DNA from: an uncultured delta proteobacterium
GTDB lineage: Bacteria > Myxococcota_A > Polyangia > Polyangiales > Polyangiaceae
DNA: 64,000 bases
Assembly: GCA_963850305.1 (NCBI GenBank)
Contig: CAWKKR010000008.1
Coordinates: 320,001 to 384,000 of the forward strand
Direction: 5' to 3'
This document shows positions 8,423-58,098 of the stretch, piece after piece (the stretch's first letter is position 1; each line of letters opens with the position of its first letter). Position numbers and translations under genes: made by a program. The notes beneath the pieces were generated by a model, which was given only the letters and a program-made list of their open reading frames with translations, made no database searches and had not been told where the DNA came from.

Positions 8423-9247
8423 CTAGGGGCCATCGCTCGACGCGTCCCGGATGGAACGCGTGCCCGCGTCCGCGCTCGCGTCACGTTCCGACGCTCCGCC
8501 GCTTTCGGACGCTCCGTCCGTGGACGCATCGGTCCCTCCCGCGCCCACGCTAGATCCGCCCGACCCGACGGTGGTGCCGCCACTCGACGCATCAGCCTCC
8601 GTGCCCCCGGACGAGCTGCCGGCATCTGCCGTCCCGCCCGCACCCGGTGAGCCGCCAGCTTCCTCTACGCCGCCCGCACCCGGCGATCCGCCCGATTCAT
8701 CTGCGCCACCGGCACCCGGCGATCCGCCCGATTCATCTGCGCCACCGGCACCCGGCGATCCGCCCGATTCATCTGCGCCACCGGCACCCGGCGATCCGCC
8801 GGCACCCGGCGATCCGCCGGCACCCGGCGATCCGCTGGCACCCGGCGAACCGCCAGCACCCGGCGAACCGCTGGCACCCGGCGAACCGCCGGCTTCCTCT
8901 CCGCCGCCGGCACCCGGCGAACCGCTGGCACCCGGCGAACCGCCGGCTTCCTCTCCGCCACCGGCACCCGGCGAACCACCGGCTTCCTCTGCGCCACCGG
9001 CACCCGGCGATCCGCCGGCACCCGACGAGCCGCCCGAACTCGACGAACCGCAATCGCAGATGCCCCATTGCGCGTTCGCGCCGCATCGTTCGCCGCCGGC
9101 GCACGCACCCGGGCCGACACAGGTGCGCGTGTCTCCTGGCGAGCAGAGCCCGTGGCCCGCGTCGTAAGTCGAGTCGCCGAAGAGACTCTTGGAGTCCGAT
9201 GAGCACCCGACCGCGGCCGATACGAGCACGACGACCGCGAGGGCCAT
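8423..9247 (-). CDS. Gly/Ser-rich lipoprotein with a Cys-rich domain and GGSPGA repeats
   Basis: MALAVVVLVSAAVGC lipobox; CSPGDTRTCVGPGACAGGERC; repeated GGSPGA. Confidence 0.8.
   Translation of the reverse strand: MALAVVVLVSAAVGCSSDSKSLFGDSTYDAGHGLCSPGDTRTCVGPGACAGGERCGANAQWGICDCGSSSSGGSSGAGGSPGAGGAEEAGGSPGAGGGEEAGGSPGASGSPGAGGGEEAGGSPGASGSPGAGGSPGASGSPGAGGSPGAGGSPGAGGADESGGSPGAGGADESGGSPGAGGADESGGSPGAGGVEEAGGSPGAGGTADAGSSSGGTEADASSGGTTVGSGGSSVGAGGTDASTDGASESGGASERDASADAGTRSIRDASSDGP
8625..9030. repeat. Intragenic 18/36-bp tandem repeats
   Basis: Many copies of GCACCCGGCGA(T/A)CCGCC encoding GGSPGA. Confidence 0.85.
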
Positions 9248-46936: not shown

Positions 46937-47918
46937 TCAAGCGCGCAGGCGATGCGTCGGTGCTTCCGGCTCGCTCTCGAGGAGACGGGCAAACGTCAAC
47001 AGCTCCGCCGCACAGGTCGCCAGCTCCGGACGATCGCTGGGGTCGGACGCCGTCAATGCTCGAATCAACCGTCGAAGCCCGGCCGGCAGATCGCCGAGCG
47101 CGCGCTGGAGCTCGAGCTCGGGCGCCCTCCGAACGAGCGCATGTTCCGTCGGCGTATAGCCCATGACGAACTCGTACAGAATGCAGCCCACTGCGTAGGC
47201 GTCCACCCGGTGATCGAAGTCTGACCCTACCCGACACTCCGGCGCCATGTACGTCCAGGTTCCGAAGGTGGAAAAGTCACCCTCTCCGTCGGCCAGACCC
47301 TGATCGAGCGGCTTCGCCGCGCCGAAGTCCAGAAGCACAACGCGTCCGTCATCGCAGACGAAGACGTTCTCTGGCTTCACGTCGGCATGCACGAAGCCCT
47401 GAGCGTGCAGATAACCGAGCGGTAAGCACAGCCGTTCGATGACGTGCAGCGCGGCCGCGAGGGCATCGACGCGGACCGCCGAACGCGTTTCGTCGGCGTT
47501 TCTGCGGCGTGCGTGGACGCTCGATTCGACGGGCTCCGCATCGACCCAACGGGTCTCCATGAAGTGGCGGAGCGAAGCGCCCTCGAGAAGCTCCATCGCA
47601 TACCAGGGGCTGTCGTCGGCGACGGAATGTTCATAGAGACGCACGACTCCTCCGTGACGAAGCCGGCCGAGCAGCATCACCTCCCGGGCGATCGTTTCGC
47701 GGAAGGTCGAGCTCTGGTCCCGCTCGATTCTTGACTGCACACCGAGCTCCGGTCCGGGTATCCGTGGCGACGTGAACGGCTCCAACACCGCCCGAGCCGA
47801 TTCGCTCTCCCACCCGGTAAGGGCCGAGATTCCTGCGGAAAGGCGCACCGGATCGGTCCTCGAAGATCGGGGGCTCGTCAGCCGTTCGTTCCGTCCTGGC
47901 GCCGTGCATCGCCCCCAT
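46937..47918 (-). CDS. Soluble Ser/Thr protein kinase (non-RD), apparent frameshift at ~47728
   Basis: IGSGGVGAVH...CAVK (ORF 47631) joins IERDQ...HADVKPEN, DFG, GTWTYMAPE (ORF 46937) once one base is removed from GATTC 47726-47730. Confidence 0.85.
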
Positions 47919-48129: not shown

Positions 48130-48681
48130 ATGCGTGTACTCGTCGTTGAAGATGATGACCTCCTGCGCCGGTCGATAGGGAAGGCCGTTCGTTCCTGGGG
48201 CGCGGAGGTCTTCGAAGCTGCAACCGTCCGGGACGGCGTGGCGTTGCTCGAGCGCCATCCGGATCTTCTCGTCATGGACGTGCGGCTCGGCGATGGGACC
48301 GGACTCGACGTGGCCCGAGCTGCCGCGCGCACGCGACCCATTCCGTTGATGATCGCGATCAGCGGACAGGCGTTGCCCGAGGAAGCCTTCCAGCTCGCGC
48401 AGCTCGGCGTGCGCGGCTATCTGCCGAAACCACTCTCGCTCGACGACCTGCATGCGACGGTGACCGCCATCGCGCACCAACCGGTCGAACTGGCGGCGCA
48501 TGCCGCCGGGCAAGTCGGTCAGGAACCGTTCCAGGACGTGCAAGCCAATCTCCGGCGCACGATGGTGGAGCAGGCGCTGGCCCTCTCCGCCGGCAGTCGG
48601 ACCGGCGCCGCGCGCCTCCTCGGCGTCACGAGGCAGGCCGTCCAGCAGATGATCCGGGATTTATCGCTCGAGAAGTCGTGA
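48130..48681 (+). CDS. RegA/PrrA-like response regulator (REC + Fis-type HTH)
   Basis: VLVVEDD, VMDVRL, ISG, YLPKP; EQALALSAGSRTGAARLLGVTRQAV. Confidence 0.92.
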   Translation: MRVLVVEDDDLLRRSIGKAVRSWGAEVFEAATVRDGVALLERHPDLLVMDVRLGDGTGLDVARAAARTRPIPLMIAISGQALPEEAFQLAQLGVRGYLPKPLSLDDLHATVTAIAHQPVELAAHAAGQVGQEPFQDVQANLRRTMVEQALALSAGSRTGAARLLGVTRQAVQQMIRDLSLEKS

Positions 48682-48715
48682 CAACTCAAATGAAAGTCAG
48701 CGGAGGGAAGTTTCT

Positions 48716-50132
48716 ATGCTCAAAGGCACCAAAGACCGTGGACCAACAGCCGCCAGGCGCTCGGCCCCGAAGCACAGTCGCTCGGCGAAAGCGAATGGCG
48801 CCGCCGCGGCGGCCGGCGCGAGAGCGAAGGTCCTGCAGGACGCGCTGACGCACGGCCCCGGACGCTACTGCGCGGTCGCGTTCTACGATCTCCCGGACTC
48901 TTCACCGGGCGCCCGGCGTGCCCTGTGGGAGGCACTCGCCGCGTTGATGGAGAACGCCGGCAAGGACGCGCCGCCCAATCGATACATCCTCGTGGGGGCC
49001 TCGGCGTCCGCGCTGGAGGGACATCCCGTGTACCGGAACGTGGCGGCAGGCGTAGATGCCTTCCGCGAGCGAATCGCGGCGTTCCCGCGTCTCATCATCC
49101 ATCAGCACGACGTCATGGTTCAAGTCGCGGCCGAGGCCGAGGAAGATCGAGTGAACGGCCTCCGGCTCGCGCACGACTACCTCGCTGGCCTCGCGGAGCT
49201 CGCGTGCGAGACGTTCGGGGGCCGGCTCTCGAACGATCGGGAAGCATTCGGGTACGTGGATGGGGTCGTCGCGAAGCCGATGAGAGCCAACTCCCGCTCG
49301 AAGGCCCCTGCCACGGCAGTCGACAGCTCCGCTGGCGCGCGCGAGCTGCTCGGGACGAAACCCGACGGCGGCGCATGGGTCCTTCATCAGCGCTTTCAGC
49401 AGGACGTCACCGCGTTCTCGCACCTCGAATCGGATCGGAAAAACGACGTGTTCGGCATCAAACCGAACGGGGACAAGATCCCCGAGCCGCCACCCAACGC
49501 GCACGTGACGCTCGCGCGGAAACTGAAGCCGGCGATGACCCGCCGAGGTTTCCCGTACCGTCGCGACGGCATCGAAGGGCTCGCGTTCGTGGCAGCCGCC
49601 GCGGACCCGACGGTGTTCGGCGACACGCTCGCGCAGATGTTCTCGCACAAGGATCGGCTGCTCCCGTTCGTTCGCGCCATCGAGGACACCGGGCTCTACT
49701 TCGCGCCGGCGGCGGCGACGCCACTGTCCGTCGCGAAGCCCGCACAACGACTCCCGGCGCTCGCGGTCACGTCGGACGATCCGGTCGTCGGGCGCACCGC
49801 TCCGCTCGTTCTCTATTCCGTCGCCGCCACGATCGCGACGTACGTCGATACCATCAAGGAGAATGGCTTCATCGACGACCTGCACGTGCTCGGCGAAGCC
49901 AAGATCGCCAGGAGGGTGCAGCCACTCGTGGAGCTCCTCCACCAAGTGTTGTCCGGCGGAAGGATTCGAGCGCTGCGATTGCAATGGGAAGCCCGGGGTC
50001 AGGTTGGTCAGCCCTGGACGCCCGGATGCCACGGTGACCGCTTCTCAGCTCGACGGGCTTCTGGATCGAGGCATGCAGGAAGCGAATGCAATCAACCTGC
50101 AGTCGGACGCGTACATCACGCTGGGCGGCTGA
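48716..50132 (+). CDS. Dyp-type peroxidase with a long C-terminal extension, apparent frameshift at ~49965
   Basis: REAFGYVDGV (GxxDG), NAHV (proximal His), MTRRGFPY (distal Arg), GLAFVA. Removing one T from GATTC 49963-49967 gives an end of ...ANAINLQSDAYITLGG* whose TGA overlaps the next ATG. Confidence 0.85.
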
Positions 50133-51551
50133 TGTCCGCGAGCTTCACGGCCTGGCTCCTCGCTCTCGACCCGGACAAGCGACGAGCGACGAGTAGCCCA
50201 GCCTCGTGGATTGGGATCTTCCTGTCAGGCACGGTGGTCATGGCCATCGCGGGCCTGGTCCCCGTTTCGCGCGACTATTTCGGGCTTCGCTTCTGGCCGG
50301 CGTTCTGCATGTTCGTGCCGCCCATCGTCGTCGGCGCAGTGGGCGGTGACCTCGAGGCGAAGGGCCGGCTCGGACTTCGAGCCTATGGAACGACGCTCTT
50401 CGTGAACTCGGTCCTGTTTCAGCTCTACATGGGGTCGCTCGTGGCGTTCTCGCGCGCGCCGGGCGCCGCGCTGATGGGAGCGTTTCCCGTGCTGCTCGCT
50501 TGCTATCACGGGCATCTACTCCACTCGAGCCCCCGGCATCCGTACGGGACGGTCGCGACCACCCTGGCGCTCGCCGGCAATCTCGCTCTGAACCACGATC
50601 GCGAGCACCTCGTGCTGATGGCTTTGATTGCGCCCGCGTCCATCCTGGGAAGTCTGGTGCTCGGACAGTTCTCGGTTGCGAGCCGCCGCGAACGGGATGA
50701 GCGCATCGCGCTGCGACAGGCCGTCGACGCGCAGATACTGAGCGACCGCACCCGGGAGGTGGAGCGCGTCGCCGGCTCCGTGCTCCGACTTCGTGCGCAC
50801 AGCCACGACGCCGGAAATACGCTCTCGAGCACGCTCATCAATGCTCAGCTCCTGGTGGCCGCCCTCGAGAAGCACCAGCTCGAAGACGGCGATCGCGCGG
50901 AGGCGCTCGCATTGACCCGGGATTCTCTGGGAAGGGTTGAAGGTGATGAAGGCGCTCCTCGAGACCGCCCGCGAGGTCGGAATCGAGGAACAACTGTCGT
51001 TCGAGACCGTCGACCTCGAGCGCGTTCTGCGTCGCGTGGTCGCACAGATCAATGCCCGCTACACCCAGTCGACGTTCTCGATTCACTTCGAGGGCGGGCT
51101 CTCGGCCTGTCGTGTGTCGGTGTCGGGCGGCGAGACGTCCCTCGATCGCATGCTCGGCAATCTCGTGCTCAACGCCGCTCAAGGGAACGGGGCGGAGACG
51201 GCGAGTCACGTCGACGTCGCCGTCTCGTCCGGCAAGGCTCCCGGACAGGTGTGTATCCTCGTGGGAGACGACGGCCCGGGGTTCAGCCAAGCTCAGCTGG
51301 ACGCGCAGCTATCCGGGTTCACGACGACGAAGGTCGGTGGAACGGGGCTCGGTCTATACACGACCGACCGATTGGCGCGCGCCAGCCGTGGCTCCATCGC
51401 GCGGGCCAACCGTGGCACCGGGGGAGCGATCGTCGCGCTCGATTTGAACCTCGCAAGAACGGCGGCGGCAGAGGATGCCGGGCCAGCCTACGTCCCGCGC
51501 GGTCCGAACGGCGAACGCCGTGCCGCGTCGCCGGCGTCCGCGCGGTCATGA
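50132..51551 (+). CDS. Membrane sensor histidine kinase (about 6 TM), apparent frameshift at ~50923
   Basis: Hydrophobic N-terminal half; H-box HSHDAGNTL; N-box NLVLNAAQ; DDGPGF; TTKVGGTGLGL. Removing one T from GATTC 50921-50925 joins the two halves. Confidence 0.9.
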
Positions 51552-52279
51552 AGCCCGAAGAGCAGATCGCGGCGCGCGCCCTCGAGCTCGCGGGCCACTC
51601 CCGACTCGGAGCGGAAGTCACACGCGATCTTGCGGCGTCCTTTCGCGGCGCGGATCCCCAGTTCTGTCGCTTCCTGTGGACCGCGGGGCTCGACGCAGGC
51701 CTCGACCCCGACGAGCTGCTTGCCCGATGCTCGACGATTTTCTTTCAGTACGTCGCGGTTCAGGTCTCGGACGATCTTTCGGACGGCGACTGCACCTATC
51801 TGACCGAACCCGGCAAGGTAGGTCCGGTGGTGCTGTTGCTCCTGCAGCACCTCTTCTATCACGGAGCGCTGATGTCCCGCATCCCACGCGACACGCTCGC
51901 AGGAGTCGCGAGGCGCTTTCTCCGGGTCGGCGCCGCTCAGCGGATAGAGTTACGAACGAGAGAATGGGGTCTCGCGAACGCACGCAACGCTGCGGCGGGG
52001 CTCAACGCCGCGCAATTCAGCGCGTACCTGGAGCTCCTCTGGTGGGGAACTCCGCTTGCGGCCCGCGCGGAGAGCGTCGGCAAACATCTCGGCATCGCCG
52101 TCCACGTCGCGAGCGACGCGCGTTCGAGAGACCGACGCTTCACCTCGCTGAGCACGCGAGATCGAAAAACCCTTCTCCGCTGGGCCGCCGCATCCGCAAA
52201 GGTGCTCCGGGCGGAGCATCTCCAGTCACTCGATCGAGTGTTGCCCACCGTTCTTTCGTCGCTGAACGACGGAGCGTGA
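51548..52279 (+). CDS. Isoprenyl-diphosphate-synthase-fold protein, ComQ-like prenyltransferase candidate
   Basis: AVQVSDDLSDGD (DDxxD), GAAQRIEL (GQxxD/E-like), GKHLGIAVHVASD (degenerate second motif); ~243 aa, helical-looking; ATGA overlap with the kinase gene. Confidence 0.7.
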   Translation: MKPEEQIAARALELAGHSRLGAEVTRDLAASFRGADPQFCRFLWTAGLDAGLDPDELLARCSTIFFQYVAVQVSDDLSDGDCTYLTEPGKVGPVVLLLLQHLFYHGALMSRIPRDTLAGVARRFLRVGAAQRIELRTREWGLANARNAAAGLNAAQFSAYLELLWWGTPLAARAESVGKHLGIAVHVASDARSRDRRFTSLSTRDRKTLLRWAAASAKVLRAEHLQSLDRVLPTVLSSLNDGA

Positions 52280-52299
52280 CGCGGACGCGTTTTTTTGCC

Positions 52300-53571
52300 T
52301 CAGGGGTTACAGCCGACCTGGGTGATATCCACGTTGCCGAGCAGCGCATCGTTGACCTGGCCGGACACGTTCGGGCAGCTCTCGGTGACGCAACGCTGCG
52401 CCGCGTAGCGCGTCGCCGCATCGCCGGGCCCACCGCCGCTCAGACCGGCCAGACCGGCGCTGTTCGCCCAGCAATCCGCGTATTCTGCGCCGTTCATCGT
52501 GCCAGTGCCGAGGACGTGCTCGCCCATGTAAGGAATGGCCGCCTTGTCTCCCATGCACCAATCCATCTGGGGGCTCTCGGGCCAATAGAGACCGATGAAC
52601 ATGCACATCTCGTCGGTCGTCTGCTGGCCCTGCGCGATGTCCCGCGCCTCCGTGTTCTGATAGCCGCACGACCATTTGACCCACTGACCCTGCTTCATCG
52701 GTATGGGCGGCGAATCGACCACCGCGGGCGGCTCGTTCCAGTTGGTCGTGTGGTAGAGCTGTTGCACCTCGCTGGTCGAGCCGAGGAGCGGATCTCCGTC
52801 GAGCAGCGAAGCGGTGTAATCGACGCCGCGCGCGTGCATGTGCGCCACCTGCTGCACGAGATTCACGTCCTCCGTCACCGGGCAAGACGTGGTTGCGCTG
52901 GCAGCGCTCGCCGCCGGGATCGCGATGTAGTTGTTGTACCAGAATATGACTCCGGCGCGCTGTGCGACCTGGGCGGTGGGGATGCTGTAGAGGTTTTCCT
53001 TGTAACACGCATGAACCGGATTTTCCGACGTGTTGATCATGTGAAAATTCAGCTCGAGCACGTCGTTCTTCGCGATCTTCAGCGCGACGTCGTCCGGAAG
53101 AGTTCCCTTCGCGAGCGTGGAGCGCGCATCGTCGACTCGCGCCACGAGCAAGCCCGAGACCTGATAATTCGACGCCAGGCTCTCGCAGTCGAGGGCCGTG
53201 GACGCATCGACGGTGTTGCCGGCAACGTCGGTGGTCGGCAGCACCCCGTTCGCATAAGATGTAGAGAGAACGTTGGCGTGGTGCGACCCTTTGGTGAACA
53301 TGCCCTCCGACCAGTTCATGTTCACGTCGTCACTCGCCAGGATGAGTTTGCACACCTGACGCTCCTGACCCGCGTCGAGCTGCATATCGATTGACACCTG
53401 GATCCCCTCGCCGGGCGCAGGGGGCGGAAGATCGAGAGCGTCGCACCCGTCGAGCGGAGCGCTCGCGCTGCCGATCGGATCGGGTGAAGCTGGGGCGGTG
53501 GTGTCACCGCCTCCGCACGCGGAAAGGATCAAAGCGGCCCCGATCGCGACGTACCCCTGGAAATGCGGCAT
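52300..53571 (-). CDS. Lipoprotein with copper type II ascorbate-dependent monooxygenase (PHM/DBH-like) domains
   Basis: LILSAC lipobox; candidate Cu ligands GSHHA, NFHM, AHMH and TDEMC. Confidence 0.85.
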   Translation of the reverse strand: MPHFQGYVAIGAALILSACGGGDTTAPASPDPIGSASAPLDGCDALDLPPPAPGEGIQVSIDMQLDAGQERQVCKLILASDDVNMNWSEGMFTKGSHHANVLSTSYANGVLPTTDVAGNTVDASTALDCESLASNYQVSGLLVARVDDARSTLAKGTLPDDVALKIAKNDVLELNFHMINTSENPVHACYKENLYSIPTAQVAQRAGVIFWYNNYIAIPAASAASATTSCPVTEDVNLVQQVAHMHARGVDYTASLLDGDPLLGSTSEVQQLYHTTNWNEPPAVVDSPPIPMKQGQWVKWSCGYQNTEARDIAQGQQTTDEMCMFIGLYWPESPQMDWCMGDKAAIPYMGEHVLGTGTMNGAEYADCWANSAGLAGLSGGGPGDAATRYAAQRCVTESCPNVSGQVNDALLGNVDITQVGCNP

Positions 53572-53688
53572 CCGGAACGACCTCTCTCGACCGGGCTTAT
53601 ATCGCGTCGGCGGCATCCTGGACATAGTCCGATCTTCGATGCGGGGGACGTCCCAAGCTCCGCTGCGGTAGCTGCCGCGCTCGCAGAC

Positions 53689-57678: not shown

Positions 57679-57842
57679 GCCCCTTCCGACGTTGGCCGCA
57701 TGCAGACCCCTACGGCGAGAGGTGATTTATTTTCTCTCCGCCCAAAGGAGAGCGGCCGATTGGTCGGTCGCGCAACTCCACTTCAATTCAGCGCGTCCCT
57801 CACGTCACGAATTGCAGCCAGCAGCAAATTCCCGCTCACGAA

Positions 57843-58098
57843 GAGCGATCCGTCCTTCCCGGCAAGCACCGATCGCTTGAACTGAGCGATCCGTCCTTCC
57901 CGGCAAGCACCGATCGCTTGGCGCAAGCGACGTCTGCCTTCCCGGCAAGGACGGATCGCTCGGCGCAAGCGACGTCTGCCTTCCCGGCAAGGACGGATCG
58001 CTCGGCGCAAGCGACGTCTGCCTTCCCGGCAAGGACGGATCGCCTGGCGCAAGCGACGTTCGCCTTCCCGGCAAGGACGGATCGCTTGGACCGAGCGA
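57843..58098. repeat. Six-copy ~42-bp tandem array with internal inverted arms
   Basis: CCTTCCCGGCAAG at 57854, 57895, 57937, 57979, 58021 and 58063. AGCGATCCGTCCTT (units 1-2) is the exact reverse complement of AAGGACGGATCGCT (later units). Confidence 0.9.

Follow-up and report, generated by a model that had tools for sequence, protein, structure and literature searches.

We analysed a window of 64,000 nucleotides from the genome of an uncultured delta proteobacterium of the family Polyangiaceae (6.26 Mb, 66% GC, 11 contigs), and describe an operon that encodes a response regulator, a DyP-type peroxidase fused to a small domain of an unnamed family (hereafter X), a membrane histidine kinase and a protein of isoprenoid-synthase fold (hereafter PT), of 183, ~471, ~472 and 243 aa, respectively (Table 1). 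An open reading frame (ORF) of 1187 aa is present at 48716-52279. As a sequence-only reading of this DNA had claimed, it is a chimera resulting from two +1 slips at the pentamer GATTC, found at 49963 and 50921. The GC content by codon phase shifts by +1 near 49960, is back at 50132, shifts by +1 again near 50920 and is back at 51548, and the last three genes are coupled through TGATG (50130-50134) and ATGA (51548-51551). Furthermore, both the DyP-tail protein and the kinase (471 aa) are intact in the closest relative, locus L028, and tblastn against this locus switches frame at both places. Collectively, these results confirm that the four-gene operon is real.

At 50921, the DNA alignment to L028 gives one surplus T (GATTC versus GATC), while near 49963 the GATTC is the likely site, L028 being too diverged there to position the base. 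A third slip, at a GAATC on the minus strand (47726-47730), splits the upstream Ser/Thr kinase gene, whose L028 orthologue is read in a single frame. Because L028 is intact at all three places, the slips are most likely sequencing errors. Across the genome, +1 phase changes follow 31 of 1255 coding GATTC sites (2.5%) and 41 of 1272 coding GAATC sites (3.2%), a 2-3-fold excess over the 0.8-1.3% that the same count gives for eight control motifs. The likely cause is an error that recurs systematically near GATC, possibly tied to methylation. Reads from one DNA run (share 0.08) gave four short contigs, none of which spans a slip. As three slips in 3.2 kb exceed the genome-wide expectation, the local sequence quality may be poor. 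Since +1 frameshifts are in excess at these motifs, doubt extends to other genes of this assembly that look ‘broken’ or ‘fused’.

Table 1. Features of the operon and its flanks (positions within the window).
Feature	Position	Strand	Remarks
Response regulator	48130..48681	+	183 aa; receiver and Fis-type helix-turn-helix (HTH), RegA/PrrA/ActR-like architecture
DyP-type haem peroxidase domain	48716..49777	+	N-terminal part of the ~471-aa DyP~X fusion
X domain	49778..50132	+	~115 aa; unnamed family; apparent +1 slip at GATTC 49963-49967
Membrane histidine kinase	50132..51551	+	~472 aa; apparent +1 slip at GATTC 50921-50925
PT	51548..52279	+	243 aa; predicted trans-IDS/MoeN5-fold protein
Hairpin and T-run after PT	52278..52298	+	weak terminator-like site, facing the convergent gene
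Divergent Ser/Thr kinase	46937..47918	-	PF00069; carries the third slip (47730)
Lipoprotein with copper type II monooxygenase C-terminal domain	52300-53625	-	PF03712; convergent with the operon

The last gene had been expected to encode a protein of isoprenoid-synthase fold, and two structure searches with an AlphaFold2 model (pLDDT 98) agree on this. Foldseek placed MoeN5 at the top (E 1.7e-5, TM 0.70, 16-18% identity), and VIA a geranyltranstransferase (Z 23.1, rmsd 3.0, 237 aligned), followed by MoeN5 (20.7), Ord1 (19.8) and terpene cyclases (about 12). Judged by this model, PT has the fold of the trans-IDS enzymes (isoprenyl diphosphate synthases of the trans type) and of MoeN5. At the sequence level PT matched no Pfam family (PF00348 was matched by 0 of 110 PT homologues at E<=0.1), and nothing significant was found in the PDB. 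The first motif, DDxxD, lies at 75-79, with D75, D76 and D79 each conserved in 98% of the 110 homologues, and is followed by G(D/E)CxYL. The second motif is degenerate (H186-x3-D190-x4-D195-x-R197, or HVAxDxxSxDxR) with an invariant R197; position 186 is His in 64% and Gln in 8%, in a register taken from a weak alignment to a geranylgeranyl diphosphate synthase (E 0.69). Two DDxxD motifs together with an Arg-Arg loop after the first, which we take to be the hallmark of canonical chain-elongating trans-IDS enzymes, are not found in PT. The intact DDxxD and the HVAxDxxSxDxR pattern suggest a non-elongating enzyme that would ionise an allylic diphosphate. A search of 1.84 billion sequences gave 225 representatives at E<=0.001, and the Atlas cluster of PT (324 members, unnamed) stands next to the MoeN5 and polyprenyl-synthase clusters. 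The PT homologues nearest to that of the window come from Polyangiaceae. We also noted a single record (P0147) with PT behind a ~320-aa domain that bears a HEYCH metallopeptidase-like motif and matches no Pfam family, and a tandem pair of PT genes divergent from X and kinase (L057, 7953-9468).

The sequence-only reading had described the second gene as a DyP with a tail. While the DyP domain stands, the tail is a distinct domain, X, of a ~105-aa family that usually forms a free-standing gene; in genome G062, DyP is free within the corresponding operon and the homologue of the tail is encoded by a 104-aa gene of its own. The fusion in the window appears genuine because no in-frame start codon lies at the domain boundary and the fusion recurs elsewhere, with X behind DyP in at least 10 loci. 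X matched no sequence in Pfam, NCBIfam, the Atlas or the PDB and no NHLP model, PF05952 had no match in 40 X members, and a fold search gave no clear match (best VIA Z 6.1). A model of a free relative has three helices (pLDDT 90.8). The conserved positions are Y23, G31, G35, G38, H54, G59, N90 and N93 and the tail is variable; the copy in the window ends ...NAIN...AYITLGG-stop. One X~PT fusion was found (P0096, on a single contig), from which the X tail is absent, and two X copies (G114 and G058) lack exactly the C-terminal ~20 residues, with no PT found in either genome. Tail-less homologues with an N-terminal EFGETT.EWF and no PT nearby are seen in L155 (~8549-8860, minus strand), L156 (789-1262), P0194 and P0195. 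X copies of the actinobacterial type (L063, L066, L068, L110-L121 and similar), mostly accompanied by PT alone, end in Cys-x-stop (HCP, CF, CY, CM), and a Cys acceptor is possible in this group. A ‘VLAGG’ in X was considered as a double-glycine cleavage site and dropped, the segment downstream of it being conserved to the degree of that upstream and no C39 transporter recurring.

For the survey, loci were gathered by one PT motif (48 from genomes and 70 from metagenomes, members without the motif being missed) and dereplicated at 70% PT identity to 30 loci. By hidden Markov model (HMM), X adjoins PT in 42 of the 43 genome loci with >=2.5 kb upstream, the 43rd being a divergent fused form; over all loci of this kind, the count is 65 of 70. 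Of the five loci missed, four have a divergent DyP~X fusion with the tail motif retained. After dereplication X is present in 29 of the 30 loci (26 plus three divergent forms), accompanied by the kinase in 22, a RegA-like regulator in 14, DyP in 11, a methyltransferase in eight and a STAND AAA/TPR regulator in two; of the 22 kinases, 18 have a receiver of any kind as neighbour. The distances of PT and X are correlated (rho 0.51, n 33), more strongly than those of PT and the kinase, as shared ancestry alone can yield.

The proposed module of synthase, sensor and regulator, linked to a peroxidase, does recur, and PT homologues co-occur with this kinase and regulator in other genomes: the full set of regulator, DyP, kinase and PT is found in 10 loci, two of them near-identical, with records titled Polyangiaceae, Spirochaetaceae and Oleiphilaceae among them. 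However, the conserved core is X and PT, the kinase being missing from eight of the 30 loci, and regulator, DyP, methyltransferase and STAND protein are likewise optional. Reduced forms occur in Fibrobacterota and Actinomycetota records, X and PT stand alone in actinobacterial and some Sorangium loci, and the order PT-X-kinase, matching comQ-comX-comP, is seen in G557 and G049. The module is rare and patchy in the family: among 383 family genomes, PT was found in 10, X in nine (seven of the nine copies adjoining PT) and the membrane domain of the kinase in five, three of these beside X/PT. A phylum-wide search with a four-sequence profile, of low sensitivity as six candidates were scored per genome, gave hits in three of 401 genomes, two of them weak, while 58 pattern matches in viral contigs yielded no relatives. 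By record titles, X and PT genes occur in cultured strains of Archangium, Hyalangium, Vitiosangium and Sorangium. One locus titled as a Klebsiella pneumoniae metagenome-assembled genome (L033) has PT and X nearly identical to those of deltaproteobacterial L032 and is probably mislabelled.

The DyP domain of the window matches PF20628 above the cut-off (E 8e-13) and TIGR01413 below it (E 3e-16). GYVDG, the proximal His (NAHV) and RRGF are found in the window and in L028 and L005, so that the GxxDG motif, the His and the distal Arg are all in place; no signal peptide was seen and the N-terminal DyP domain was not detected. The partner methyltransferase aligns with C6-FPP-MT (9tb4, E 3e-56) and BezA (7fbh, E 2e-52) and keeps the catalytic Glu region. 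Because it adjoins PT homologues or is fused with them (five PT~methyltransferase fusions among the 150 homologues listed, nine long hits and one 300-aa hit having been examined), it points to geranyl diphosphate (GPP) or farnesyl diphosphate (FPP) as the probable allylic donor of PT. The window's own locus has no methyltransferase; DyP and methyltransferase are nearly exclusive, both occurring in one of 30 loci (kinship uncorrected). The STAND AAA/TPR regulator often adjoins X at kinase-less loci.

The regulator, 84% identical to its L028 orthologue, matches PF00072 (E 3e-18) and PF02954 (E 1.4e-4), and scores 57.6 bits against NF033791, below the cut-off of 250. The kinase has a HATPase_c domain (PF02518, E 1e-14), an H-box HDxxN and five to six transmembrane (TM) helices predicted by hydropathy. 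Its TM domain has no family match but conserves W, P, F, Q and H residues among the kinases (alignment rows L071, L038 and L131 being omitted). NF033792 gives a weak full-length match (47, versus a cut-off of 350), PF07730 is absent from two intact kinase orthologues, and GGxxNPF, which we take to be the quinone motif of RegB, was not found in 30 kinases.

We then compared the module with known systems. In the excerpts of PMC4008528, ComX has 52-73 aa (PF05952) with a Trp near the C-terminus, ComQ carries PF00348, the ComP kinase PF07730 with 8-10 TM helices and the ComA regulator PF00196, and the 2014 census found no ComQXPA outside Firmicutes. The module shares with ComQXPA an isoprenoid-synthase-fold enzyme with the first Asp motif intact and the second degenerate, and in both this enzyme is encoded next to a small partner, a polytopic kinase and a regulator in one same-strand, coupled operon. 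It differs in that X has ~105 aa, is folded and lacks a C-terminal Trp, PT lacks PF00348, the kinase has HDxxN and ~6 TM helices, and the regulator has a Fis-type rather than a LuxR-type HTH. The gene order is regulator, DyP~X, kinase, PT in the window and not Q-X-P-A, although some relatives have Q-X-P, and ComQXPA has no counterpart of the DyP, methyltransferase and STAND partners. The Gln just upstream of the second motif, conserved in the Trp prenyltransferases ComQ, PalQ, ChrP and Ord1 according to excerpts of PMC13290415, is not matched by PT, where the position is 186. The ‘ComQ-like’ assignment is right for the fold alone: neither the defining Trp nor the Gln that binds it is present, and PF00348, a HisKA_3 kinase and a LuxR-type regulator are absent as well. 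As four defining features are absent, the module is not a ComQXPA member, though it may work like it.

The excerpted PMC10853753 describes a similar layout, PalP-PalX-PalQ of Paenibacillus, which likewise combines a kinase, a precursor with a folded leader and a trans-IDS-like prenyltransferase; however, PalX has an NHLP leader and a terminal Trp, and PalQ the Trp-binding Gln197. MoeN5 and Ord1, non-elongating prenyltransferases, share with PT a trans-IDS fold and a similar size, but have small-molecule substrates, lie in large antibiotic clusters and come with neither X nor a dedicated sensor. The BezA and C6-FPP-MT pathways (benzastatin, C16 homosesquiterpenes) contain a close homologue of the optional methyltransferase, whose partners there are terpene cyclases or another prenyltransferase class and not the PT family; C6-FPP-MT genes cluster with terpene synthases (PMC12929941, in part). 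RegB/RegA have in common with the module a receiver with Fis-type HTH and a ~6-TM kinase, whereas the module scores far below their cut-offs (47/350 and 58/250) and lacks GGxxNPF.

We propose, with slightly less than an even chance of being right, that X is prenylated by PT close to the C-terminus, at a site other than Trp, that the product is modified by DyP or by the methyltransferase and that the kinase senses it. Under this hypothesis, PT would bind GPP or FPP at DDxxD and move the prenyl group onto X, its dedicated protein substrate, whose folded N-terminal ~85 residues would act as a leader-like recognition domain. As the acceptor we envisage a group other than Trp among the last ~15 residues, namely the Tyr of Y-x-T in the clade of the window, with optional tailoring by C6-methylation of the donor or by the DyP, which in the window is fused to X. 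Lipidated X or a piece of X, perhaps after cleavage or export, would then partition into the membrane, where the 6-TM kinase would read it and phosphorylate the RegA-like regulator of a presumed regulon, the STAND protein being an alternative reader. We favour X as the protein substrate of PT because the two are almost always paired and in one case fused, because orphan copies have lost the tail, and because PalP-PalX-PalQ offers a precedent.

A number of observations weigh against this proposal. In a dereplicated set of 61 X proteins, no one residue is conserved as an acceptor: within the final 12 positions, Trp is found in two, Tyr in 34 and Cys in 14, while 16 have none of these. Conservation runs the whole length of X, as in a folded protein, and weak covariation of N93-T101 and I86-L103 (Neff 90, a low depth) suggests that the tail packs on helix 3. 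The trans-IDS-like peptide prenyltransferases characterised so far all act on Trp, as stated in the part of PMC13290415 consulted. Moreover, six of the 30 loci are devoid of both kinase and STAND, neither a protease nor an exporter recurs in the neighbourhoods, a kinase without X/PT is found in G530, and the sensor domain of the kinase does not clearly track PT (rho 0.19, p 0.085) or, apparently unlike in a pherotype system, X (rho 0.16, p 0.14, n 20, with saturating distances). A folded X without fixed nucleophile would suit a non-catalytic subunit or carrier, with PT and X making a small terpenoid or prenylated metabolite from GPP/FPP (or the 6-methyl form) that DyP oxidises and the kinase senses. 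We regard this as possible though rather unlikely, and as a serious rival because no tail nucleophile is fixed, the tail shows signs of packing and the kinase pocket is constant, with W/Q/H of the membrane domain unchanged across differing X tails, as would be expected for a fixed ligand. The structural neighbours MoeN5 and Ord1 act on small molecules, BezA/C6-FPP methyltransferases serve small-molecule pathways, and the sole X~PT fusion is without the X tail. Nevertheless, terpene cyclases (Z about 12) lie much further from PT than trans-IDS enzymes do (Z 23), yet the second motif of PT is not intact; no gene supplying a small-molecule acceptor recurs in the neighbourhoods; and X is unlike known small subunits of prenyl synthases.

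It is also conceivable, though improbable, that the module is an intracellular switch and makes no secreted pheromone. In it, PT would lipidate or bind full-length X according to the prenyl-diphosphate supply, DyP would add a peroxide or redox input via the Tyr of the tail, and X at the membrane would govern the kinase or STAND protein from within the cell. The fusion of X behind a cytoplasmic DyP, the replacement of the kinase by cytoplasmic STAND regulators and the weak resemblance of regulator and kinase to RegA/RegB are in line with this, as is the missing signal peptide, protease and exporter; however, the ComX locus has no dedicated protease or exporter either (excerpt of PMC4008528), so that such an absence does not discriminate. 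The tail Y-x-T occurs in 14 of 14 DyP-bearing loci versus seven of 22 without DyP, but the tree holds one well-supported independent contrast for this link, and the RegB motif is absent. More improbable still, X and PT could be a minimal biosynthetic unit whose expression the two-component pair merely controls on an unrelated cue, which would fit the loci with X and PT alone, the orphan kinase and the weak kinase-PT covariation. Against this, in several phyla the gene for the kinase sits between those for X and PT with translational coupling, and three gene orders that include it are known. Its unusual membrane domain was found in only the five family genomes mentioned above, in three of which it lies beside X/PT.

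Among the flanking genes, the divergent Ser/Thr kinase is found upstream of the module in L028 too and is probably outside it. The PF03712 copper-monooxygenase-like gene was excluded as a member, as it is not seen behind PT in L028. Terminator-like sites number seven in the region versus 2.2 expected, and the one behind PT is a consensus match only. Elsewhere in the window, the ORF list shows recurring peptides in several frames at ~57780-58050, reflecting tandem ~36-bp repeats. On the minus strand of L005 (3707-9516), divergent from the G062 module, a 103-aa ORF, a ~332-aa protein with a weak polyprenyl-synthase match (PF00348, E 0.013, DDVVDWEDD), an S8 peptidase and a GAF histidine kinase resemble a second cassette of enzyme, precursor, protease and sensor; its enzyme and small ORF, tried as relatives of PT and X, are unrelated by hhalign.

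Taken together, these results define a real and conserved module of three unnamed protein families that is apparently undescribed and for which a lipid-signal mechanism is plausible. We found no description of it in the literature, where subscription journals were thinly covered and supplements of genome-mining studies could list the family. Even if PT and X make a small molecule, three unnamed families (X, PT and the membrane domain of the kinase) are defined. The prenylation of X by PT is directly testable, as two small genes suffice. In a wider extrapolation that we consider doubtful, the module could represent a Gram-negative prenyl-peptide signalling family spanning five or more phyla. 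Its trans-IDS-fold enzyme would prenylate a folded precursor at a non-Trp position (Tyr or a terminus), dialects would arise by swapped tailoring enzymes (a C6-methylated chain or peroxidase oxidation, the latter in the window with the precursor fused to its own peroxidase) and the sensor domain would belong to no known family. Prenylated-peptide signalling is documented in Firmicutes in the excerpts of PMC4008528 and PMC13290415; if the proposed mechanism is true, its logic would extend to myxobacteria and other phyla, with a new acceptor chemistry and possibly a methylated prenyl chain.

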